DNA of 64,000 nt from Eledone cirrhosa (taxonomy: Eukaryota): the NCBI GenBank assembly GCA_964016885.1, contig OZ024740.1:336660001-336724000 (forward strand), written 5' to 3'. How positions within the stretch are numbered: the stretch's first letter is position 1; each line of letters opens with the position of its first letter. Below, in pieces: positions 1-49,900 of the stretch. The notes under the pieces are model-generated. The model did no database searches. It was not told the origin of the DNA and saw nothing but the letters and a program-made list of their open reading frames with translations. Both the position numbers and the translations under genes were made by a program.

Positions 1-3000
1 GTTGGATCTCTGTGGTTGGGGTTGGAGCTGGGGGTGTTGGATATCTGTGGTTGGGGCTGAAGCTGTGGGTGTTGGATCTCTGTGGTTGGGGTTGGAGCGT
101 GAGGTGTTGGATCTCTGTGGTTGGGGTTGGAGCTGGAGGTGTTGGATCTCTGTGGTTGGGGTTGGAGCTGGAGGTGTTGGATCTCTGTGGTTGGGGTTGG
201 AACTGGGGGTGTTGGATATCTGTGGTTGGGGTTGGAGCTGGGGGTGTTGGATATCTGTTGTTGGGGCTGAAGCTGGGGGTGTTGGATCTCTGTCGTTGGG
301 GCTGAAGCTGGAGGTGTTGGATCTCTGTGGTTGGGGCTGAAGCTGGGGGTGTTGGATCTCTGTGGTTGGGGCTGGAGCTGGAGTTGTTGGATCTCTGTGG
401 TTGGGGTTGGATCTGGGGGTGTTGGATCTCTGTTGTTGGGGTTGGAGCTGGGGTGTTGGATCTCTGTGGTTGGGGCTGAAGCTGGGGGTGTTGGATCTCT
501 GTGGTTGGGGCTGGAGCTGGAGGTGTTGGATCTCTGTGGTTGGGGTTGGAGCTGGAGGTGTTGGATCTCTGTGGTTGGGGCTGAAGCTGGGGGTGTTGGA
601 TCTCTGTAGTTGGGGCTGGAGCTGGAGGTGTTGGATCTCTGTGGTTGGGGTTGGAGCTGGGGTGTTTGATCTCTGTGGTTGGGGTTGGAGCTGGGGTGTT
701 GGATCTCTGTGGTTGGGGTTGGAGCGTGAGGTGTTGGATCTCTGTGGTTGGGGTTGGAGCTGGAGGTGTTGGATTTCTGTGGTTGGGGCTGAAGCTGGGG
801 GTGTTGGATCTCTGTGGTTGGGGTTGGAGCTGGAGGTGTTGGATCTCTGTGGGGTTGGAGCTGGGGGTGTTGGATCTCTGTGGGGTTGGAGCTGGGGGTG
901 TGGGATCTCTGTGGTTGGGGTTGGAGCTGGGGGTGTTGGATCTCTGTGGTTGGTGTTGGAGCTGGAGGTGTTGGATCTCTGTGGGGTTGGAGCTGGGGGT
1001 GTTGGATCTCTGTGGTTGGGGTTGGAGCTGGAGGTGTTGGATTTCTGTGGTTGGGGCTGAAGCTGGGGGTGTTGGATCTCTGTGGTTGGGGCTGGAGCTG
1101 GAGGTGTTGGATCTCTGTAGTTGGGGTTGGAGCTGGAGGTGTTGGATATCTGTGGTTGGGGCTGAAGCTGGGGGTGTTGGATCTCTGTGGTTGGGGCTGG
1201 AGCTGGAGGTGTTGGATCTCTGTGGTTGGGGCTGGAGCTGGGGGTGTTGGATCTCTGTGGTTGGGGTTGGAGCTGCGGTGTTGGATCTCTGTGGTTGGGG
1301 TTGGAGCGTGAGGTGTTGGATCTCTGTGGTTGGGGTTGGAGCTGGAGGTGTTGGATTTCTGTGGTTGGGGTTGGAGCTGGGGGTGTTGGATATCTGTGGT
1401 TGGGGCTGAAGCTGGGGGTGTTGGATCTCTGTGGTTGGGGCTGGAGCTGGAGGTGTTGGATCTCTGTGGGGTTGGAGCTGGAGGTGTTGGATCTCTGTGG
1501 TTGGGGCTGGAGCTGGAGGTGTTGGATCTCTGTGGGGTTGGAGCTGGAGGTGTTGGATCTCTGTGGGGTTGGAGCTGGAGGTGTTGAATCTCTGTGGGGT
1601 TGGAGCTGGAGGTGTTGGATCTCTGTGGTTGGGGTTGGAGCTGGAGGTGTTGGATCTCTGTGGTTGGGGCTGGAGCTGGAGGTGTTGGATCTCTGTGTTT
1701 GGGGTTGGAGCTGGGGGTGTTGGATATCTGTGGTTGGGGCTGAAGCTGGAGGTGTTGGATCTCTGTGGTTGGGGCTGGAGCTGGAGGTGTTGGATCTCTG
1801 TGGGGTTGGAGCTGGAGGTGTTGGATCTCTGTGGTTGGGGTTGGAGCTGGAGGTGTTGGAAATCTGTGGTTGGTGTTGGAGCTGGAGGTGTTGGATCTCT
1901 GTGGTTGGGGTTGGAGCTGGGGGTGTTGGATCTCTGTGGTTGGGGTTGGAGCTGGGGGTGTTGGATCTCTGTGGGGTTGGAGCTGGGTGTGTTGGATCTC
2001 TGTGGGGTTGGAGCTGGAGGTGTTGGATCTCTGTGGGGTTGGAGCTGGAGGTGTTGGATCTCTGTGGGGTTGGAGCTGGAGGTGTTGGATCTCTGTGGGG
2101 TTTGAGCTGGAGGTGTTGGGTCTCTGTGGGTTTGGAGCTGGAGGTGTTGGATCTCTGTGGTTGGGGCTGGAGCTGGGGGTGTTGGATCTCTGTGGTTGGG
2201 GTTGGAGCTGGGGGTGTTGTATCTCTGTGTTTGGGGTTGGAGCTGGAGGTGTTGGATCTCTGTGTTTGGGGCTGAAGCTGGGGGTGTTGGATCTCTGTGG
2301 TTGGGGCTGGGGGTGTTGTATCTCTGTGGTTGGGGTTGGAGCTGGAGGTGTTGGATCTCTGTGTTTGGGGCTGCAGCTGGGGGTGTTGGATCTCTGTGGT
2401 TGGGGCTGCAGCTGGGGGTGTTGGATCTCTGTGTTTGGGGCTGCAGCTGGGGGTGTTGGATCTCTGTGGTTGGGGCTGCAGCTGAGGGTGTTGGATCTCT
2501 GTGTTTGGGGCTGCAGCTGGGGGTGTTGGATCTCTGTGTTTGGGGCTGCAGCTGGGGGTGTTGGATCTCTGTGTTTGGGGCTGCAGCTGGGGGTGTTGGA
2601 TCTCTGTGGTTGGGGCTGGGTGTGTTGGATCTCTGTGGGGTTGGAGCTGGAGGTGTTGGATCTCTGTGGTTGGGGCTGGAGCTGGGGGTGTTGGATCTCT
2701 GTGGTTGGGGTTGGAGCTGGGGCTGTTGGATCTCTGTGGTTGGGGTTGGAGCTGGAGGTGTTGGATCTCTGTGGTTGGGGTTGGAGCTGGAGGTGTTGGA
2801 TCTCTGTCGTTGGGGCTGGAGCTGGGGGTGTTGGATCTCTGTGGTTGGTGTTGGAGCTGGAGGTGTTGGATCTCTGTGGTTGGGGCTGAAGCTGGGGGTG
2901 TTGGATCTCTGTGGTTGGGGCTGGAGCTGGAGGTGTTGGATCTCAGTGGGGTTGGAGCTGGAGGTGTTGGATCTCTGTGGTTGGGGTTGGAGCTGGGGTG

Positions 3001-6000
3001 TTGGATCTCTGTGGTTGGGGCTGAAGCTGGGGGTGTTGGATCTCTGTGGTTGGGGCTGGAGCTGGAGGTGTTGGATCTCTGTGGTTGGGGTTGGTACTGG
3101 GGGTGTTGGATCTCTGTGGGGTTGGGGTTGGAGCTGGGGTGTTGGATCTCTGTGGTTGGGGTTGGAGCTGGGGTGTTTGATCTATGTGGTTGGGGTTGGA
3201 GCTGGGGTGTTGGATCTCTGTGGTTGGGGTTGGAGCGTGAGGTGTTGGATCTCTGTGGTTGGGGTTGGAGCTGGAGGTGTTGGATATCTGTGGTTGGGGC
3301 TGAAGCTGGGGGTGTTGGATCTCTGTGGTTGGGGCTGGAGCTGGAGGCGTTGGATTTCTGTGGTTGGGGTTGGAGCTGGGGGTGTTGGATCTCTGTGGTT
3401 GGGGCTGGAGCTGGAGGTGTTGGATCTCTGTGGGGTTGGAGCTGGAGGTGTTGGATCTCTGTGGTTGGGGTTGGAGCTGAAGTAGTTGGATTTCTGTGGT
3501 TGGGGTTGGAGCTGGGGGTGTTGGATATCTGTGGTTGGGGCTGAAGCTGGGGGTGTTGGATCTCTGTGGGGTTGGAGCTGGAGGTGTTGGATCTCTGTGG
3601 TTGGGGCTGGAGCTGGAGGTGTTGGATCTCTGTGGGGTTGGAGCTGGAGGTGTTGGATCTCTGTGGTTGGGATTGGAGCTGGAGGTGTTGGAAATCTGTG
3701 GTTGGGATTGGAGCTGGGGGTGTTGGATCTCTGTGGTTGGGGCTGGAGATGGAGGTGTTGGATCTCTGTGGTTGGGGTTGGAGCTGGGGGTGTTGGATTT
3801 CTGTGGTTGGGGTTGGAGCTGGGGGTGTTGGATCTCTGTGGTTGGGGCTGGAGAAGGAGGTGTTGGATCTCTGTGGTTGGGGTTGGAGCTGGAGGTGTTG
3901 GATCTCTGTGGTTGGGGTTGGAGCTGGGGGAGTTGGATCTCTGTGGTTGGGATTGGAGCTGGGGGTGTTGGATCTCTGTGGTTGGGGCTGGAGATGGAGG
4001 TGTTGGATCTCTGTGGTTGGGGTTGGAGCTGGGGGTGTTGGATCTCTGTGGGGTTGGAGCTGGGTGTGTTGGATCTCTGTGGGGTTGGAGCTGGAGGTGT
4101 TGGATCTCTGTGGGGTTGGAGCTGGAGGTGTTGGATTTCTGTGGGGTTGGAGCTGGAGGTGTTGGATCTCTGTGGGGGTTTGAGCTGGAGGTGTTGGGTC
4201 TCTGTGGGGTTGGAGCTGGAGGTGTTGGATCTCTGTGGTTGGGGTTGGAGCTGGAGGTGTTGGATCTCTGTGGTTGGGGCTGGAGCTGGGGGTGTTGTAT
4301 CTCTCTGGTTGGGGTTGGAGCTGGGGGTGTTGGATCTCTGTGTTTGGGGTTGGAGCTGGAGGTGTTGGATCTCTGTGTTTGGGGCTGAAGCTGGGGGTGT
4401 TGGATCTCTGTGGTTGGGGCTGGGGGTGTTGGATCTCTGTGGGGTTGGAGCTGGAGGTGTTGGATCTCTGTGGTTGGGGTTGGAGCTGGAGGTGTTGGAT
4501 CTCTGTGGTTGGGGCTGGAGCTGGGGGTGTTGGATCTCTGTGGTTGGTGTTGGAGGTGGAGGTGTTGGATCTCTGTGGTTGGGGCTGAAGCTGGGGGTGT
4601 TGGATCTCTGTGGTTGGGGCTGGAGCTGGAGGTGTTGGATCTCAGTGGGGTTGGAGCTGGAGGTGTTGGGTCTCTGTGGGGTTGGAGCTGGAGGTGTTGT
4701 ATCTCTGTGGTTGGGGTTGGAGCTGGAAGTTTTGGATCTCTGTCGTTGGGGCTGGAGCTGGGGGTGTTGGATCTCTGTGGTTGGTGTTGGAGGTGGAGGT
4801 GTTGGATCTCTGTGGTTGGGGCTGAAGCTGGGGGTGTTGGATCTCTGTGGTTGTGGCTGGAGCTGGAGGTGTTGGATCTCAGTGGGGTTGGAGCTGGAGG
4901 TGTTGGATCTCTGTGGTTGGGGTTGGAGCTGGAGGTGTTGGATCTCTGTGGTTGGGGTTGCAGCTGGAGGTGTTGGATCTCTGTGGTTGGGGTTGGAGCT
5001 GGAGGTGTTGGATCTCTGTGGTTGGGGTTGCAGCTGGAGGTGTTGGATGTCTGTGGTTGGGGCTGGAGGTGGGGGTGTTGGATCTCTGTGGTTGGGATTG
5101 GTGCTGGGGGTGTTGGATCTCTGTGGTTGGGGTTGGAGCTGGAGGTGTTGGATATCTGTGGTTGGGATTGGAGCTGGGGGTGTTGGATCTCTGTGGTTGG
5201 GGCTGAAGCTGGGGGTGTTGGATCTCTGTGGTTGGGGTTGGAGCTGGAGGTGTTGGATCTCTGTGGTTGGGGTTGGAGCTGGAGGTGTTGGAAATCTGTG
5301 TTTGGGGTTGGAGCTGGGGGTGTTGGATATCTGTGGTTGGGGCTGAAGCTGGAGGTGTTGGATCTCTGTGGTTGGGGCTGGAGCTGGAGGTGTTGGATCT
5401 CTGTGGGGTTGGAGCTGGAGGTGTTGGATCTCTGTGGTTGGGGTTGGAGCTGGAGGTGTTGGAAATCTGTGGTTGGTGTTGGAGCTGGAGGTGTTGGATC
5501 TCTGTGGTTGGGGTTGGAGCTGGGGGTGTTGGATCTCTGTGGTTGGGGTTTGAGCTGGGGGTGTTGGATCTCTGTGGGGTTGGAGCTGGGTGTGTTGGAT
5601 CTCTGTGGGGTTGGAGCTGGAGGTGTTGGATCTCTGTGGGGTTGGAGCTGGAGGTGTTGGATCTCTGTGGGGTTGGAGCTGGAGGTGTTGGATCTCTGTG
5701 GGGTTTGAGCTGGAGGTGTTGGGTCTCTGTGGGGTTGGGGCTGGAGGTGTTGGATCTCTGTGGTTGGGGCTGGAGCTGGGGGTGTTGGATCTCTGTGGTT
5801 GGGGTTGGAGCTGGGGGTGTTGTATCTCTGTGTTTGGGGTTGGAGCTGGAGGTGTTGGATCTCTGTGTTTGGGGCTGAAGCTGGGGGTGTTGGATCTCTG
5901 TGGTTGGGGCTGGGGGTGTTGTATCTCTGTGGTTGGGGTTGGAGCTGGAGGTGTTGGATCTCTGTGTTTGGGGCTGCAGCTGGGGGTGTTGGATCTCTGT

Positions 6001-9000
6001 GGTTGGGGCTGCAGCTGGGGGTGTTGGATCTCTGTGTTTGGGGCTGCAGCTGGGGGTGTTGGATCTCTGTGGTTGGGGCTGCAGCTGGGGGTGTTGGATC
6101 TCTGTGTTTGGGGCTGCAGCTGGGGGTGTTGGATCTCTGTGTTTGGGGCTGCAGCTGGGGGTGTTGGATCTCTGTGTTTGGGGCTGCAGCTGGGGGTGTT
6201 GGATCTCTGTGGTTGGGGCTGGGGGTGTTGGATCTCTGTGGGGTTGGAGCTGGAGGTGTTGGATCTCTGTGGTTGGGGCTGGAGCTGGGGGTGTTGGATC
6301 TCTGTGGTTGGGGTTGGAGCTGGGGCTGTTGGATCTCTGTGGTTGGGGTTGGAGCTGGAGGTGTTGGATCTCTGTGGTTGGGGTTGGAGCTGGAGGTGTT
6401 GGATCTCTGTCGTTGGGGCTGGAGCTGGGGGTGTTGGATCTCTGTGGTTGGTGTTGGAACTGGAGGTGTTGGATCTCTGTGGTTGGGGCTGAAGCTGGGG
6501 GTGTTGGATCTCTGTGGTTGGGGCTGGAGCTGGAGGTGTTGGATCTCAGTGGGGTTGGAGCTGGAGGTGTTGGATCTCTGTGGTTGGGGTTGGAGCTGGG
6601 GTGTTGGATCTCTGTGGTTGGGGCTGAAGCTGGGGGTGTTGGATCTCTGTGGTTGGGGCTGGAGCTGGAGGTGTTGGATCTCTGTGGTTGGGGTTGGTAC
6701 TGGGGGTGTTGGATCTCTGTGGGGTTGGGGTTGGAGCTGGGGTGTTGGATCTCTGTGGTTGGGGTTGGAGCTGGGGTGTTTGATCTCTGTGGTTGGGGTT
6801 GGAGCTGGGGTGTTGGATCTCTGTGGTTGGGGTTGGAGCGTGAGGCGTTGGATCTCTGTGGTTGGGGTTGGAGCTGGAGGTGTTGGATATCTGTGGTTGG
6901 GGCTGAAGCTGGGGGTGTTGGATCTCTGTGGTTGGGGCTGGAGCTGGAGGCGTTGGATTTCTGTGGTTGGGGTTGGAGCTGGGGGTGTTGGATCTCTGTG
7001 GTTGGGGCTGGAGCTGGAGGTGTTGGATCTCTGTGGGGTTGGAGCTGGAGGTGTTGGATCTCTGTGGTTGGGGTTGGAGCTGAAGTAGTTGGATTTCTGT
7101 GGTTGGGGTTGGAGCTGGGGGTGTTGGATCTCTGTGGTTGGGGCTGAAGCTGGGGGTGTTGGATCTCTGTGGGGTTGGAGCTGGAGGTGTTGGATCTCTG
7201 TGGTTGGGGCTGGAGCTGGAGGTGTTGGATCTCTGTGGGGTTGGAGCTGGAGGTGTTGGAAATCTGTGGTTGGGATTGGAGCTGGGGGTGTTGGATCTCT
7301 GTGGTTGGGGCTGGAGATGGAGGTGTTGGATCTCTGTGGTTGGGGTTGGAGCTGGGGGTGTTGGATTTCTGTGGTTGGGGTTGGAGCTGGGGGTGTTGGA
7401 TCTCTGTGGTTGGGGCTGGAGAAGGAGGTGTTGGATCTCTGTGGTTGGGGTTGGAGCTGGAGGTGTTGGATCTCTGTGGTTGGGGTTGGAGCTGGGGGAG
7501 TTGGATCTCTGTGGTTGGGATTGGAGCTGGGGGTGTTGGATCTCTGTGGTTGGGGCTGGAGATGGAGGTGTTGGATCTCTGTGGTTGGGGTTGGAGCTGG
7601 GGGTGTTGGATCTCTGTGGGGTTGGAGCTGGGTGTGTTGGATCTCTGTGGGGTTGGAGCTGGAGGTGTTGGATCTCTGTGGGGTTGGAGCTGGAGGTGTT
7701 GGATTTCTGTGGGGTTGGAGCTGGAGGTGTTGGATCTCTGTGGGGGTTTGAGCTGGAGGTGTTGGGTCTCTGTGGGGTTGGAGCTGGAGGTGTTGGATCT
7801 CTGTGGTTGGGGTTGGAGCTGGAGGTGTTGGATCTCTGTGGTTGGGGCTGGAGCTGGGGGTGTTGTATCTCTCTGGTTGGGGTTGGAGCTGGGGGTGTTG
7901 GATCTCTGTGTTTGGGGTTGGAGCTGGAGGTGTTGGATCTCTGTGTTTGGGGCTGAAGCTGGGGGTGTTGGATCTCTGTGGTTGGGGCTGGGGGTGTTGG
8001 ATCTCTGTGGGGTTGGAGCTGGAGGTGTTGGATCTCTGTGGTTGGGGTTGGAGCTGGAGGTGTTGGATCTCTGTGGTTGGGGCTGGAGCTGGGGGTGTTG
8101 GATCTCTGTGGTTGGTGTTGGAGGTGGAGGTGTTGGATCTCTGTGGTTGGGGCTGAAGCTGGGGGTGTTGGATCTCTGTGGTTGGGGCTGGAGCTGGAGG
8201 TGTTGGATCTCAGTGGGGTTGGAGCTGGAGGTGTTGGGTCTCTGTGGGGTTGGAGCTGGAGGTGTTGTATCTCTGTGGTTGGGGTTGGAGCTGGAGGTTT
8301 TGGATCTCTGTCGTTGGGGCTGGAGCTGGGGGTGTTGGATCTCTGTGGTTGGTGTTGGAGGTGGAGGTGTTGGATCTCTGTGGTTGGGGCTGAAGCTGGG
8401 GGTGTTGGATCTCTGTGGTTGGGGCTGGAGCTGGAGGTATTGGATCTCAGTGGGGTTGGAGCTGGACGTGTTGGATCTCTGTGGTTGGGGTTGGAGCTGG
8501 AGGTGTTGGATCTCTGTGGTTGGGGTTGGAGCTGGAGGTGTTGGATCTCTGTGGTTGGGGTTGGAGCTGGAGGTGTTGGATCTCTGTGGTTGGGGTTGCA
8601 GCTGGAGGTGTTGGATGTCTGTGGTTGGGGCTGGAGCTGGGGGTGTTGGATCTCTGTGGTTGGGATTGGAGCTGGGGGTGTTGGATCTCTGTGGTTGGGG
8701 TTGGAGCTGGAGGTGTTGGATATCTGTGGTTGGGATTGGAGCTGGGGGTGTTGGATCTCTGTGGTTGGGGCTGAAGCTGGGGGTGTTGGATCTCTGTGGT
8801 TGGGGTTGGAGCTGGAGGTGTTGGATCTCTGTGGTTGGGGTTGGAGCTGGAGGTGTTGGAAATCTGTGGTTGGTGTTGGAGCTGGAGGTGTTGGATCTCT
8901 GTGGTTGGGGTTGGAGCTGGGGGTGTTGGATCTCTGTGGTTGGGGTTGGAGCTGGGCGTGTTGGATCTCTGTGGTTGGGGTTGGAGCTGGAGGTGTTGGA

Positions 9001-9136
9001 TCTGGTGTGGTTGGGGTTGGAGCTGGGGGTGTTGGATCTCTGTGGTTGGGGTTGGAGCTGGGCGTGTTGGATCTCTGTGGTTGGGGTTGGAGCTGGAGGT
9101 GTTGGATCTGGTGTGGTTGGGGTTGGAGCTGGAGCT
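1..9136. repeat. 35-bp G-rich minisatellite array (consensus GTTGGATCTCTGTGGTTGGGGTTGGAGCTGGRGGT), truncated by the window start
   Basis: Continuous tandem units of 35 bp with 30-, 34- and 36-bp variants. Diagnostic variants recur at offsets of 3603 and then 3568 bp. Confidence 0.98.
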
Positions 9137-9249
9137 TGAATTTGACCTTAGAGCGCTGGTGCAGCTGTACATGGGGATGGTTCCAATTCATGTTGGAGCA
9201 TCAGGGTTAAAAGGGAAGATCCCACAGGCTCTAAATACCGTTTCTTTAC
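9137..9249 (-). pseudogene. Fragment of a pogo/Tigger/Fot1-like (DDE_1) transposase C-terminus
   Basis: Minus strand 9235-9197 reads FRACGIFPFNPDA. The preceding bases GTAAAG-A-AACGGT-A-TTT give VKNGF if two 1-bp insertions are removed. This matches the (N/S)GFxxxG(I/L)xP(F/L)NP motif that closes pogo-family DDE domains. Confidence 0.7.
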
Positions 9250-9269
9250 CTGTATATAGGTATATTGTA

Positions 9270-9318
9270 TGTGGTGGAGCTTAATGTTCCCTGGGACTTA
9301 ATACCCCCGTTCGCCCTA
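9270..9318 (-). mobile_element. Candidate terminal inverted repeat of a Tc1/mariner-pogo-like element, flanked by TA
   Basis: Minus strand reads TA|GGGCGAACGGGGGTATTAAGTCCCAGGGAACATTAAGCTCCAC, with an internal near-repeat (TATTAAGTCCCA/CATTAAGCTCCA), and directly precedes the transposase fragment. The partner TIR is not in the window. Confidence 0.45.
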
Positions 9319-9332
9319 TAGGAATGTGTGAC

Positions 9333-9505
9333 ATTCTTTTATTCTTTACTAATTTTAGTAACTGGACTGCGGCCATGCTGATGCACCCCAGTACTTGTTA
9401 AGGTCTTTTTTAAGTCTTGTATTGATTCTATCGATCTCTATTTGTCAAGCCGCTAAATTTGTAGGACAAATGGCACCGGCTGTTAAGCGATGTCGACATA
9501 AATAC
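9333..9505 (-). mobile_element. Decayed SINE fragment (family with CAGCATGGCC...AAAAGAATAAAAGA tail)
   Basis: Reverse complement resembles the + strand tail at about 31293-31355. Confidence 0.55.
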
Positions 9506-40189: not shown

Positions 40190-43100
40190 TGCAATAATAC
40201 AACACAATAGCACCATACCAACAACAATAACAACAGACCACTATCAATAGCAGACCAACAACAATACAACACCAACATCCCAACACAACTAACACAAACA
40301 ACAACAACACCACCACACCAACATCACCGCCACACCACCAACAACAGCACCACACCAACAACACCACACCAACAACAACAACACCACACCAACAACACCA
40401 CACCAACCACAACAACACCAACCACAACAACACCAAACCAACACCACCACACCAACACCACACCAACAACAACACCACACCAACAACAACACCACACCAA
40501 CAACACCACCAACAACAACAACACCACCACACCAACATCACCGCCACACCACCAACAACAGCACCACACCAACAACACCAACAACAACAACACCACACCA
40601 ACAACACCACACCAACACCACCAACACCACACCAACACCACACCAACAACAACACCACACCAACAACAACACCACACCAACAACACCACCAACATCAACA
40701 ACACCGCACCAACAACAACAACACCGCACCAACAACAACAACACCACCACACCAACAACAACAGCACCAAACCAACAACACCACACCAACAACACCAACA
40801 ACAACACCACACCAACAACAACACCACACCAACAACACAACAACAACAACAACACCACCACACCAACAACAACAACACCATACCAACAACAAAAACACCA
40901 CACAAACAACACCACACCAACAACAACACCACACCAACAACACCACACCAACAACACCACACCAACAACACCACATCACCAACAACACCACACCAACAAC
41001 AACAACACACCAACAACAAAAACACCACACCACCAGCAACACCACCACCAACACCACCACACCAACAACAACACCACCACACCAACAACACCACACCAAC
41101 AACAACATCACACCAACAACAACAAAACCCCACCAACAGCAACACCACACCGACAACGACACCACCACCACACCTTCAACAACAACACCAAACCAACAAC
41201 ACCAAACCAACAACACCAAACAACCAACAACAACACCACACCAACAACAGCACACCAACAACACCACACCACCAACAACACAAATACCACCACACCAACA
41301 ACAACACCACACCAACAACACCACCACCACACCAACAGCACCACCAACACCACAACAACACCACACCAACAACACCACACCAACACCACCACACCACTAA
41401 CAACACCACACCAACAACACCACACAAACAACAAAACCACATCACCAACAACGCCACACCAACAACACCACACCAACAACACCACATCAACAACACCACC
41501 ACACCACCAACAACACCAACAACAACACCACACCAACAACACCACACCACCAACAACACCACACCACCAACAACAACACACCACCAACAACAACACCACA
41601 CCAACAACAACACCACACCAACAACACAACCACAACAACACCACCACACCAACAACAACAACACCATACCAACAACAAAAACACCACACAAACAACACCA
41701 CACCAACAACAACACCACACCAACAACACCACACCAACAACACCACACCAACAACACCACATCACCAACAACACCACACCAACAACAACAACACACCAAC
41801 AACACCACACCAACAACAACAACACACCAACAACAAAAACACCACACCACCAGCAACACCACCACCAACACCACCACACCAACAACAACACCACCACACC
41901 AACAACAACACCACCACACCAACAACACCACACCAACAACAACATCACACCAACAACAACAAAACCCCACCAACAGCAACACCACACCGACAACGACACC
42001 ACCACCACACCTTCAACAACAACACCAAACCAACAACACCAAACCAACAACACCAAACAACCAACAACAACACCACACCAACAACAGCACACCAACAACA
42101 CCACACCACCAACAACACAAATACCACCACACCAACAACAACACCACACCAACAACACCACCACCACACCAACAGCACCACCAACACCACACCAACAACA
42201 CCACACCAACAACACCACACCAACACCACCACACCACTAACAACACCACACCAACAACACCACACCAACAACACCACACAAACAACAAAACCACATCACC
42301 AACAACGCCACACCAACAACACCACACCAACAACACCACATCAACAACACCACCACACCACCAACAACACCAACAACAACACCACACCAACAACACCACA
42401 CCACCAACAACACCACACCACCAACAACGACACCACACCAACAACAACACCTCCACCAACAATAACACCACCACACCAACAACAACACCACACCACCAAC
42501 CACACCACACTACCAACAACAACACCACACCACCAACAACACAACACCAACAACAACACCACACCACCAACAACAACACAACAACACCATACCACCACCA
42601 ACAACACCACCACACCAACAACAACAACACCACACCACACCACCACCAACAACACCACACCACCACCAACAACACCACACTCCCAAAAACAACACCACAC
42701 CAACAACACCACACCACCACCAACAACACCACACCACCAACAACAACAGCACACCCCCAACAACAACACCACACCAACAACACCACACCACCACCAACAA
42801 CACCACACCACCAACAACGATACCACACCACCACCAACAACACCACACCAACAACAACAACACCACACCAACAACACCACACCAACAACACCACACCACC
42901 ACCAACAACACCACACCAACAACACCACACCCCTAACAACAACACCACACCACCAACAACAACACCACACCACCAACAACACCACACCACCAACAACAAC
43001 ACCACACCAACAACACCACCACACCACAAACAACACCACACCAACAACAGCACCACACCACCAACAACACCACACCACCAGCAACAACACCACACCAACA

Positions 43101-46100
43101 ACAACACCACACCAACAACAACACCACACCACCAACAACACCACACCACCAACAACAACACTACCAAAAAACAACACCAACAACGAAAGCACACCAACAA
43201 CAACACCACCACACCAACAACACCACACCACCAACAACACCACACCAACAACACCACCACCACACCAACAACACCACCACACTAACAACAACACCACACC
43301 AACAACAACACCACACCAACAACACCACACCACCAACAACACCACCACAACACCAACAAGACCACCACACCAACACCACCACACCAACAACAACACCACA
43401 CCAACACCACCACCACACCACCCCAACAAACACCACCACACCAGGAACAACAACACCACACCAACAACATTACCACACCAACAACAACACCGCACCAACA
43501 ACACCATTACACAAACACCACACCAACATCACCACCAACAACAACACCACACCAACAGCATCACCGCACAAACAACACCAACAAGACCACCACACCAACA
43601 ACACCACCACACCAGCAACAACAACACCACACCAACAATAACACCACCACACCAACAACACCACCAACAACAACACCACACCACCAACAACACCACCACA
43701 CCGCCAACAACACCACACCAACAACACCGCCACACCACCAACCACACCACACCAACAACAATACCACCACATCAACAACACCACCACACCAACAACACCA
43801 CACCAACAACACAACCACACCAACAACACCACCAACAACAACACCACAACAACAACAACACCACACCACCAACTACACCACCACACCACCAACCACACCA
43901 CACCAACAACATCACCACACCAACAACACAACCACACCAACACCACCACACCAACAACACCACCAACAACACCACACCAACACCACACCAAGAACACCAC
44001 ACCACCAACAACACCTCCACACCAACACCACCACACCAACAACACCACCACACCAACAACACAACCACACCAACAACAACACCACACCAACACCACACCA
44101 CCAACACCACAACCACACCAACAACATCACCACACAAACATCACCACACAAACAACCACACCACACCAACAACACCTCCACACCAACACCAACACCACCA
44201 TACCAACAACAACACCACACCAACAACACCACCACACCAAGAACACCACACCAACAACACCACACCAACAACACCACACCACCACCAACAACACCACACT
44301 AACAACACCACCACACCAACAACACCACCACACCAACAACACCACCACACCAACAACACCACCACACCAACAACACCACCACACTAACAACACCAACAAC
44401 AACACCACCACACCAACAACACCACACCACCAACAACAACACCACACCAACAACAACACCACACCAACAACAACAACACACACCAACCACAACAACACAC
44501 CAACACCACACCAACAACAACACGACTACACCAACAACACCACACCAACACCACACCAACAACAACACCACACTAACAACAACACCACACCAACAACAAC
44601 ACCACACTAACAACAACACCATACCACCAACAACAACACAACACCACTAACAACACCACACCACCAACACCACCACACCACCAACAACAACACCACACCA
44701 ACAACAACAGCACACCAACAACAACAACACCACACCAACAACAACACCACACCAACAACAACACCACCACCAACAATAACACCACACCAACAATACTACA
44801 CCACCACCAACAACAACACCACACCAACAACAACACCAACAACAACAACAACACCACACCACCAACAACAACGCCACATCAACAACACCACACCACCAAC
44901 AACAACACCACACCACCACCAACAACACCACACCACCAACAACAACAACAACACCGCACCAACAACACCACACCACCACCAACAACAACACCACACCAAC
45001 AACACCACACCACCACCAACAACACCACACCACCAACAACAACACCACACCACCACCAACAACACCACACCCCCAAAAGCAAAACCACACCACCAACAAC
45101 AACACCACACCACCAACAACAACACCACCACCAACAACACCACACCACCACTAACAACACCACACCACCACTAACAACACCACACCACCAACAACAACAC
45201 CACACCACCACCAACAACACCACACCACACCAACAACACCACACCACCACCAACAACACCACACCCCCAACAACAACACCACACCAACAACACCACACCA
45301 CCACCAACAACAACACCACACCACCAACAACACCACACCCCCAACAACAACACCACACCAACAACACCACACCACCAACAATAACACCACACCACCACCA
45401 ACAACACCACACCCCCAACAACAACACCACACCACCACCAACAACACCACACCACCAACAACACCACACTACCACCAACAACACCACACCACCAACAACA
45501 CACCACCACCAACAACACCACACCCCCAACAACAACACCACACCAACAACACCACACCACAACAACAACACCACACCACCAACAATAACACCACACCACC
45601 ACCACCAACACCACACCAACAACAACAACACCACACCACCACAAACAACACCACACCAACAACAACAACACCACACCACCAACAACACCACACCACCAAC
45701 AACACCACCACACCACCAACAACACCACACCACCAACAACACCACACCAACAACAACACCACACCAACAACAACAACACCACACCAACAACAATACCACA
45801 TTAACAACAACACCGCCACACCAACAACACCACACCAACAACAACACCACACCACCAACAACAACGCCACATCAACAACACCACACCATCAACAAAAACA
45901 CCACACCACCACCAACAACACCACACCACCAACAACAACAACAACACCACACCAACAACTCCATACCACCACCAACAACAACACCACACCAACAACACCA
46001 CACCACCACCACCAACAACACCACACCACCAACCCAACAACAACACCACACCACCACCAACAACACCACACCACCACCAACAACACCACACCACACCAAC

Positions 46101-49100
46101 AACACCACACCACCACCAACAACAACACCACACCACCAACAACAACACCACACCCCCAACAACAACAACACCACACCAACAACACAACACCACACCAACA
46201 ACACCACACCACAACAACAACACCACACCACCAACAATAACACCACACCACCACCAACAACACCACACCACCAACAACACCATCACCACCACCAACCACA
46301 CCACACCACCAACAACAACACCACACCAACAACACCACACCACAACAACAACACCACACCACCAACAATAACACCACACCACCAACAATAACACCACCAA
46401 CAATAACACCACACCACCAACAACAACACCACACCACCAACAACACCACACCACCACCAACAACACCACACCACCAACAACAAGACCACACCAACAACAA
46501 CACCACACCACCACCAACAACACCACACCACCACCAACAACACCACACCACCACCAACAACACCATACCACCACCAACAACACTACACCACCACCAACAA
46601 CAACACTACACCACCACCAACAACAACACCACACCACCACCAACAACACCACACCACCACCAACAACAACACCACACCACCAACAACAACACCACACCAC
46701 CAACAACAACACCACACCACCAACAACAACACCACACCAACAACAACAACACCACACCAACAACACCACACCACCAACAACAAGACCACACCAACAACAC
46801 CACCACACCACCAACAACACCACACCACCACCAACAACACCACACCACCAACAACAACACCACACCAACAACACCACACCACCAACAACAACACCACACC
46901 ACCAACAACAACACCACACCCCCAACAACAACACCACACCACCACCAACAACACCACACCCCCACCAACAACACCACACCCCCAACAACAACACCACAAC
47001 AACAACACCACACCACTAACAATAACACCACACCACCACCAACAACACCACACCACCACCAACAACACCACACCACCAACAACAACACCACACCACCAAC
47101 AACACTACACCACCACCAACAACACCACACCACCACCAACAACACCACACCACCAACAACAACACCACACCACCACCAACAACACCACACCACCACCAAC
47201 AACACCACACCACCAACAACAACACCACACCACCAACAACACCACACCACCACCAACAACACCACACCACCACCAACAACACTATGCCACCAACAACAAC
47301 ACCACACCACCACCAACAACACCACACCACCACCAACAACACCACACCACCACCAACAACACCACACCACCACCAACAACACCACACCACCACCAACAAC
47401 ACTATGCCACTAACAACAACACCACACCACCAACAACAACACCACACCACCAACAACAACACCACACCACCAACAACAACACCACACCACCAACAACACC
47501 ACACCAACAACAACACCACACCAACAACAACACCATCACCAACAACAACACCACTCCACCACCAACACCACCACCAACAACATCACACCACCACCAACAA
47601 CACCACACCAGCACCAACAACAATACCACACCACCAACAACAACACCACACCACCAACACCACACCACCAACACCACACCACCAACAACAACACCACACC
47701 ACCAACAACAACACCACACCACCAACAACAACACCACACCACCAACAACAACACCACACCACCACCAACAACACCACACCACCACCAACAACACCACACC
47801 ACCAACAACAACACCACACCACCAACAACAACACCACACCAACAACAACAACACCACACCAACAACAACAACACCACACCAACAACAACACCACCACACC
47901 AACAACAACACCACCACACCACCAACAACACCACACCACCAACAACAACACCACCACACCACCATCGCCAACACCACACCACCAACAACAACACCACACC
48001 ACCAACAACACCACCACACCACCAACAACACCACACCATCACCAACAACACCACACCACCAACAACACCACACCACCACTACCAACAACACCACACCAAC
48101 AACAACAACACCACACCACCAACAACAACACCACACCACCAACAACACCACACCACCAACAACACCACACCACCACTACCAACAACACCACACCACCAAC
48201 AACAACACCACACCATCAACAACAACACCACACCACCAACAACACCACACCATCACCAACAACACCACACCATCACCAACAACACCACACCACCACCAAC
48301 AACACCACACCACCACCAACAACACCACACCACCAACAACACTACACCACCAACAACAACACCACACCAACAACAACACCACCACACCACCATCGCCAAC
48401 ACCACACCACCAACAACAACACCACACCACCAACAACACCACCACACCACCAACAACACCACACCATCACCAACAACACCACACCACCAACAACACCACA
48501 CCACCACTACCAACAACACCACACCAACAACAACAACACCACACCAACAACAACAACACCACACCAACAACAACAACACCACACCACCAACAACAACACC
48601 ACACCACCAACAACACCACCACACCACCAACAACACCACACCATCACCAACAACACCACACCACCACCAACACCACACCACCAACAACAACACCACCACC
48701 ACACCACCAACAACAACACCACACCACCAACAACAACACCACACCACCAACAACAACACCACACCACCAACAACAACACCACATCAACAATAACACCACC
48801 ACACCACCATCGCCAACACTACACGACCACACCACCATCACCACACCACTATCACCAACACGACACCACCATACCACTATCCCCAACACTACACCACCAA
48901 CACTACACCACCAACTCCATCACTACACCACCACACCACTATCACCAACACTACACCACCACACCACTATCACCAATAGCAACCACCATCACCATCACCA
49001 CACCACTATCACTAACACTACACCACTAACACTACACCACTATCCCCAACACTACACCATCACCACACCACCAACACCAAACTACACCACCATCACCAAC

Positions 49101-49900
49101 ACTACACCACCAAGCCAACACTATACCACTATCCCCAATACTACACCACCAATACCAACACTACACCACCAACACCAACTCTACACCACCAACACCAACT
49201 CTACACCACCAACACTACACCACCAACACTACACCACCAACACTACACCACCAACACTACACCACCAACACTACACCACTATCACCAACACTACACCACT
49301 ATCACCAACACTACACCACCAAGCCAACACTATGCCACTATCCCCAACACTACACCACCATAGCCAACACTACACCACCAACACCACTATCACCAACACA
49401 ACACAACCATACCACCATCACCAACACTACACCACCACACCACTATCACCAACAGCACACCACCACCACCAACACTACACCACTATCACAAACACAACAC
49501 GACCACACCACCATCGCCAACACCACAGCACAAAAACCATCACCACACCACTATCACCAACACTACACCACCACACCACTATCACCAACAGCACACGACC
49601 ACCACCAACACCATCACCACACCACCATCACCAACAGCACACGACCACCACCAACACTACACCACTGTCCCCAACACTACACCACCAACACCATCACCAC
49701 ACCACCATCACCAACACAATACCACCAACAACATCATCACCACACCAAGAAGAGCAACAACACAACATAACCATTAGAGCTGCCCTCATCACCCCAGCAC
49801 CACCATCACCAATAACATCACCAACATCACCAGTAACACTGCCACCTATAGCACTACTACCTCCACAACCAGAACTGCTACCACCATCACCACCACCAAC
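40190..49900. repeat. About 9.7-kb CAC/CAA low-complexity array (e.g. ACCACACCAACAAC) with internal duplications
   Basis: Almost only C and A on the + strand. The rare variant CCGACAACGACACC...CCTTCAAC recurs at an 837-bp offset (about 41150 and 41987). Confidence 0.97.

Follow-up and report, generated by a model that had tools for sequence, protein, structure and literature searches.

A 76-kb minisatellite array inside a decayed pogo-superfamily transposon of Eledone cirrhosa, very probably grown from the linker of its transposase

The 64,000 nucleotides of Eledone cirrhosa DNA analysed here (C1:336,660,001-336,724,000, referred to as the window) open within a long tandem array of 35-bp units, which is bracketed by the two ends of a single, decayed transposon copy of the pogo superfamily. 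A first-pass annotation of the window had described a minisatellite of more than 9 kb; the array is real and larger, extending 66.6 kb to the left of the window. Once the neighbouring stretches are read, it covers 75,741 bp (C1:336,593,389-336,669,129, i.e., window position 9129 to -66611), and the whole element measures 76,227 bp, with a non-array part of 486 bp. The genome searched comprises 3.0 Gb in 1,796 contigs, and the transposon family was surveyed through the matches listed by searches with both element ends and with P0001, an intact homolog of its transposase. The far end of the element lies 66.6-66.9 kb left of the window, on a neighbouring stretch (L029, C1:336,590,001-336,600,000), and, like the other parts, is read on the minus strand. 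From left end to right end, including the terminal inverted repeats (TIRs), the features are as follows:

9317..9318, minus strand: left TA target-site duplication (TA precedes the TIR in most aligned left ends of the family)
9292..9316, minus strand: left TIR, outer 25 bp (84% identical to sister copy L049 over 51 bp)
9255..9291, minus strand: another copy of the TIR motif, in subterminal position, and the beginning of the 5' non-coding region
9236..9254, minus strand: junction of internal deletion 1, unique in the genome
9130..9235, minus strand: decayed DDE-domain end (FRACGIFPFNPD / ELEPSP..APPAL), then the first part of the linker
8988..9129, minus strand: frozen 5' edge of the array, with two 36-bp in-frame units of ancestral type
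1..9129, minus strand: part of the array within the window, from Tandem Repeats Finder (TRF) and unit parsing
L029:3390-3340, minus strand: PHD-finger tail, PEEMEEEEWMCDN and a stop, joined directly by the last array unit
L029:3339-3118, minus strand: 3' non-coding region, about 220 bp
L029:3117-3090, minus strand: decayed right TIR
L029:3089-3088, minus strand: right TA

Within the window, TRF reports a period of 35 with 267.9 copies over positions 1-9134. Parsing of the complete array gave 2,184 units of 310 distinct types; the bulk is indeed made of 35-bp units, as had been stated (1,703 units, 3.0% off the modal unit), with the correction that a 31-bp variant contributes another 319. Blocks of 114 and 73 units recur at an offset of 7.4 kb with 97% and 99% unit identity, further block duplications are found at offsets of 3.6, 1.9, 6.9 and 4.5 kb, and the frequencies of unit variants shift gradually along the array. 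The 36-bp type with ACA-CCA-GAT occurs twice in the whole 75.7 kb, both times at the 5' edge (motif at 9117 and 9011), and because it is confined to that edge, we regard the latter as frozen near the ancestral state. The earlier remark that 36-bp units exist only there is valid for this ancestral type; 31 other parsed units of 36 bp stand elsewhere, two of them in the window (6751 and 3148), and come from secondary gains in C runs.

The almost perfect duplication of the 7.4-kb block might be taken as a sign of assembly inflation, in which case the real array would be much shorter and its kb-scale duplications would be artefacts. We consider this improbable: in sequencing run X1, the summed contig depth reaches 50,000-98,000 over the unit vs about 10 on the unique flank, a contrast to be read as a rough sign of thousands of copies and not as a copy number, and both the gradual change in variant frequencies and the number of unit types also argue against it. 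A 474-base contig of the same run, which is possibly the assembly's own sample, is identical to positions 9080-9480, comprising flank, TIR, DDE remnant and first units. Coverage at the array locus is zero in the restriction site-associated DNA sequencing (RAD-seq) runs X5-X7. Run X4, labelled as another organism, contains one 65-base contig resembling about two 35-bp units with 2-3 differences (placed at window 9054-9109 and at L029:3399-3463); a relative might thus possess the unit, but this contig is too small to serve as evidence.

At the left end, the TIR matches many other genomic loci, and the interval from 9320 to 9255 is 78% identical to sister copy L052 over 72 columns. The TIR-like 45-mer of the first-pass annotation is retained as a TA followed by a TIR, and reduced in length, only its outer ~25-28 bp having a counterpart at the far end. 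Compared with three sisters, the stretch that joins the left end to the DDE tail is shorter by 1.65-1.9 kb (deletion 1); this removed HTH_psq, the CENP-B-type HTH and the catalytic DDE, leaving in the window copy only the tail of the DDE_1 domain. The 106-bp remnant of this tail is 80-86% identical in DNA to three sister transposases over ~100-110 bp and bears a 5-bp deletion and an in-frame stop; it translates as FRACGIFPFNPDA and, in the other frame, as ELEPSPCTAAPAL, a stop and GQIQAPAPTPTT (post-stop peptide GQIQAP), and then continues into the array. Frameshifted, stop-bearing peptides running into the array had already been noticed, and they match the sister transposases. The motif VKNG, which had been read ahead of them, was rejected: it needs two extra frameshifts and is missing from the sisters, which encode PDQIxSGF in that place, and 9254-9236 is the deletion junction.

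These frames also bear on the idea that the stretch could be a host mucin-like exon or a domesticated gene, spliced into a transcript and with a coding repeat. An AG-GTAAAG just upstream of the DDE remnant would suit such an exon, and so would the scarcity of stops on the C-rich strand, with open stretches of up to 5,635 codons; nonetheless, a stop occurs in all three frames between 9245 and the array, the reading of the 35- and 31-bp units shifts among three unrelated peptides, and no non-repetitive open frame of at least 150 codons is listed in the rest of the window. We regard a coding host exon as extremely improbable.

Beyond the other edge of the array, the presence of the rest of the transposase C-terminus and of a TIR ending in TA had been anticipated, and the PHD tail, the decayed right TIR and the TA were found there. 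The tail PEEMEEEEWMCDN shares 11 of 15 residues with the C-terminus of P0001, and about 0.4-0.5 kb are gone between the linker and this tail (deletion 2), with the break at the array edge and a CCA microhomology. At the 3' end, identity amounts to 82-86% with six sisters and to 90% with the majority of these, the sisters themselves reaching 89-92%. When eight sister right ends are compared by eye with the right TIR, 5 of its 28 bases, the terminal one included, differ from their majority; it is identical to the left TIR of the same copy at 17 of 25 positions, and both align with the family ends. Searching the element ends with P0001 (tblastn) gave E-values of 0.026 and 1.7, these segments being too short to be significant alone, and it is their DNA identity to the sisters that links them to the transposase family. 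The two ends that flank the array thus belong to one and the same element.

Decayed sister copies lie on C1-C4 and in other places; their identity is about 77-90% among the matches listed, and the copies of the family are ~8-11% off their majority. A profile scan of eight sister frames identified DDE_1 in four, HTH_psq in two and PHD in one, with no match in two others and two families in one frame. DDE_1 (PF03184), which had been expected in relatives of the window copy, was recovered in L052 (E=2.1e-5, 24.6 bits vs a cut-off of 22) and in three fragments below the cut-off (E<4e-4); HTH_psq was above its cut-off in L051 (E=1.5e-5) and was also matched in L052 (E=8e-4), and the PHD match reached E=1.8e-6. 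The intact homolog P0001 (655 aa) joins HTH_psq, DDE_1 and PHD in one protein, and is 43% identical to the longest sister frame (L052). It is of the DD35D type, 35 residues separating the second and third catalytic aspartates, a spacing counted in P0001, the genome copies being frameshifted at the catalytic region. Directly after its GFxxxGIFP motif follows a Pro-rich repeat, and six more homologs carry S/T/P-rich stretches of variable length in the same place, several of them visibly repeated; among the six, several are mollusc proteins by name, and the named homologs of this lineage come from molluscs and insects. No intact transposase of the family was found among the matches listed, the close ones containing stops or frameshifts or being fragments. 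At the sequence level, the identification of the element as a doubly deleted copy of a pogo-superfamily transposon (HTH_psq-DDE_1-PHD lineage) is supported.

By its predicted domains and spacing, the lineage has a Fot-like architecture, and is filed here only as pogo superfamily. DD35D in combination with HTH_psq characterises the Fot/Fot-like type (Gao et al., 2020, PMC7386202), and the lineage shares with it DDE_1, DD35D (in the intact homolog), HTH_psq, the TA target duplication and short TIRs. On the other hand, section 6 of that work lists Fot in fungi and Fot-like elements in chromists, protists and algae, with no animals, whereas the present lineage is animal and ends in a PHD finger, a domain unmentioned in its main text (PMC7386202).

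Other relatives were encountered in the same searches. The locus L112 (C1:84.87 Mb, minus strand) has an intact frame of 599 codons, 32% identical to P0001 and with an HTH-DDE-PHD-like layout, in which the first and third catalytic aspartates are N and E; it has no match to the family ends, and is likely a domesticated pogo gene, judging from its sequence. Foldback elements of ~130 bp, made of two left ends of the family, were observed at L016, L007, L010, L015, L020 and L021, and one such element carries another repeat inserted mid-way. A second non-autonomous subfamily (L054, L103, L107, L109 and L110) has one common deletion junction, from the DDE start to PHD, and no linker; the same junction is present in five of six copies examined, the sixth being without readout. 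At L109:5473-6136, ~550 bp from the left end of this derivative, there are 84-bp tandem units resembling putative C2H2 zinc fingers.

The parentage of the array unit can be followed in the sisters, where a short in-frame 36-bp repeat, as had been predicted for relatives, occupies the same place. The copy at C2:350.24 Mb (L051) has 3.7 imperfect 36-bp in-frame linker units encoding PIPPSPTPTTVDPTTPAPTQITPVPTPP; two modal 35-bp units of the array match this linker in 60 of 67 columns, the only gap being of 1 bp and falling in the codon GTA, and the alignment score of 97 compares with a mean of 21 and a maximum of 38 in 500 shuffles. The scores for the other three sister linkers tested likewise exceed all of their shuffles. 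Arrays rich in C and A are common nearby, and such DNA translates as Pro/Thr, so that an unrelated minisatellite, present in the transposon remnant by chance or by capture, could merely resemble a Pro/Thr linker. This is very unlikely, as the colinear match to the sister linker (90%) is far above that of equal-composition shuffles, all four sister linkers align, the array starts exactly with the linker's first unit, and the unit is absent elsewhere in the genome, leaving no source for a capture.

We therefore hold that the array very probably grew in place from linker repeats, between both coding halves and the TIRs of a dead pogo copy. The first-pass annotation had already placed its origin in the Pro/Thr linker of an internally deleted pogo-like transposase, and the two ends, the sister linkers and the domains support that proposal. 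The single lost base that it invoked is true of the net change: the one-step parent is the sister codon series ACA-GTA-GAT, and two changes would be needed from the ACA-CCA-GAT of the edge. Some considerations weigh against growth in place from the linker. The parent codon varies (GTA, CAA or CCT in the sisters, CCA in the edge unit), making the exact parent of the 35-mer ambiguous, and the order of deletion and expansion is unreadable from a single genome. Three unrelated arrays longer than 2 kb lie within 244 kb around the locus, which denotes a satellite-rich genome. No contig spanning the far junction is listed in runs X1 or X2, a gap that is uninformative by itself, and the comparison of linkers given below, three of six being expanded, is a small and partly ascertained sample from the matches listed.

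It had also been suggested that the satellite is mobile cargo, that is, that it expanded inside a non-autonomous element which moved in trans, in the past or at present, between its TIRs. The element does retain its two TIRs and two TA sites, and the family did spread other deleted derivatives, namely those with the shared junction and the ~130-bp foldback copies. Against this, all 398 genome matches of a 31-base core of the unit and all 1,568 of a 20-base core are in this one locus, the 5' deletion junction has one genome match at up to 3 mismatches (whereas another deleted derivative has one junction in common across its copies, so that dispersal can be recognised in this family where it took place), the right TIR is without its terminal base and has four other bases changed, the matches listed include no intact transposase, and the array is more homogeneous (~3%) than the family is old (~10%). 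Mobile cargo was rejected on the single-locus counts and the unique junction, and we see it as highly improbable. Because the units are ~3.0% divergent and the family copies ~8-11%, the expansion most likely postdates the activity of the family.

The linker has been amplified in two other copies of the family:

C2:366,795,823-366,802,129 (L053:9823 to L052:6129): sister array of 36-bp units, 6.3 kb
C4:27,020,262-27,022,739 (L100:5262-7739): sister array of 30-bp units (TATPVPTPPY), ~2.5 kb

The first contains 176 units, 169 of them of 36 bp, with one frame free of stops throughout (2,106 codons); it is preceded by a left TIR and a near-complete but broken transposase, and followed by the post-linker coding region. 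In the second, 79 of the 84 units have 30 bp; the remaining linker sequence and PHD come next, and the 5' part of this element is lost at the array edge. A core common to both sister arrays has 191 genome matches (113 + 77 in the two arrays, and 1 in L051), each expanded copy having amplified a different sub-unit, of 35, 36 or 30 bp, and none of the three arrays shows a sign of movement.

A search from the DDE tail to the post-linker region returned nine loci among the matches listed. Six of them keep linker sequence: three are expanded (including the 76-kb array), two have 2-4 units (C4:35.09 and C2:350.24 Mb) and one is contracted (C4:260.16 Mb). As for the remaining three, two begin downstream of the linker and one is without a linker match, and no linker match was obtained at seven further loci (L112, L116, L121, L124, L129, L136 and L153). 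The non-family DNA retrieved, about 320 kb in all, contains 3 unrelated arrays above 2 kb, a density of roughly 0.0014 per 150 bp; with two of the five non-focal copies expanded, this gives a P of about 2e-5, a rough figure from a small sample whose baseline is random DNA and not other pre-existing repeats. We infer that the linker behaves as a ready-made array seed. The view that loss of frame drives expansion was set aside, since the sister arrays kept units in multiples of 3 (36 and 30 bp) and frame loss is thus not needed. Each of the three arrays is deleted or truncated on one side, which suggests that the linker may be a break-prone site.

A possible course of events would start with the insertion of an autonomous or near-complete copy at a TA, followed by two losses, of ~1.9 kb on the upstream side of the linker and of ~0.45 kb on its downstream side. 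Without selection on the reading frame, one unit would have lost 1 bp, and the initial tens of copies may have come from slippage or repair-driven recombination. Blocks on the kb scale (7.4, 3.6 and 1.9 kb) would then have been copied by unequal exchange or repair synthesis, at a time when the family had long ceased to move, with the 5' edge staying behind, frozen with its ancestral 36-bp units. G-quadruplex (G4) potential is connected with minisatellite instability. The G-rich strand of the 76-kb array has a mean G-quadruplex score of 1.20, with 44% of windows at 1.2 or above, vs 0.85 and 0.61 in the sister arrays and 0.75-0.79 in the linkers, and a variant with a G5 run is commoner inside the array than at its edges. 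As a hypothesis from three points, a contribution of G-quadruplexes to the larger size of this array is possible.

Further repeats were observed around the element:

9335-9480: dispersed repeat adjoining the left TIR on its outer side, with raised depth in several runs, including the one labelled as another organism; it resembles, we presume, a short interspersed nuclear element (SINE)
40200-49764: unrelated 9.5-kb array, with 17-20-bp units of CAA/CAC triplets and extreme strand skew
C1:336,495,581-336,510,447: unrelated upstream array of 27-bp units, ~15 kb
C1:336,542,486-336,546,608: unrelated upstream array of 25-bp units, 4.1 kb

The birth of satellites from transposase-coding DNA is already known. 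In Chenopodium, the 40-bp satellite CficCl-61-40 originates from a tnp2 fragment of deletion derivatives of the CACTA-like element Jozin (Belyayev et al., 2020, PMC7320549). Both systems have a monomer of about 40 bp that is colinear with transposase-coding DNA, and arrays that begin at a transposase fragment in deletion derivatives; the Chenopodium monomer is 82-95% identical to its parent (PMC7320549). They differ in the seed, a single conserved tnp2 stretch in Chenopodium and a pre-existing low-complexity protein repeat here; in size, with 8-94 monomers at tnp2 in short-read contigs against 2,184 units; and in distribution, the Chenopodium satellite being a dispersed major family (PMC7320549), whereas each array described here is confined to a single locus, with no multi-locus spread. 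Moreover, here both TIRs and both coding halves bracket the array, and three copies show three different units. Satellites from miniature inverted-repeat transposable elements (MITEs), Helitrons and open reading frames of retroelements have been tabulated, none of the table rows shown being a pogo case, and satellites from internal repeats include Xmix-Xstir and miDNA4 (Xenopus), pearl/CvA-HindIII and BIV160 (bivalves) and DINE-TR1 (Drosophila) (PMC9659126, PMC6947457). Tandem repeats within TIR-bounded or non-autonomous class II elements act there, too, as proto-satellites; those repeats are non-coding and located in TIRs or central regions, while the present ones derive from the transposase frame and are undispersed (PMC9659126, PMC6947457). 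Cut-and-paste transposons have likewise been proposed to seed proto-satellites from internal repeats in the case of Merlin, the portion of that paper dealing with these repeats presenting a few units in 5' or 3' regions and no multi-kb expansion (PMC8101967). A satellite grown from the linker of a pogo transposase was not found in the literature at the level of titles and abstract openings, Repbase/Dfam and supplements (Table S1, PMC7386202) being outside the scope. The present case stands apart by the low-complexity linker as a seed, the preservation of both coding halves and TIRs around 76 kb, and the three independent units from one linker.

Nothing here points to a host function, and the array does not represent a new mobile system; its interest is in the process by which satellites arise, as the parent is seldom still intact on both sides when such a birth is observed. 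One genome holds here a series from a contracted linker, through linkers of 2-4 units and in-frame arrays of 2.5 and 6.3 kb, to an out-of-frame array of 76 kb, which constitutes a natural experiment on array growth (unit length, frame, G-run content and flanking breaks) with a common starting sequence and age. It is conceivable, and we propose it tentatively as a conjecture with somewhat less than an even chance, that the Pro/Ser/Thr linker between DDE and PHD in animal DD35D pogo elements is a general minisatellite factory: dead copies with at least two units would repeatedly break and expand, many single-locus satellites in molluscan and related genomes would be fossil linkers, and the gain of G runs (G4) after frame loss would decide whether sizes of tens of kb are attained. 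Besides the non-coding DNA of transposable elements, the disordered linker of a protein can seed satellites.

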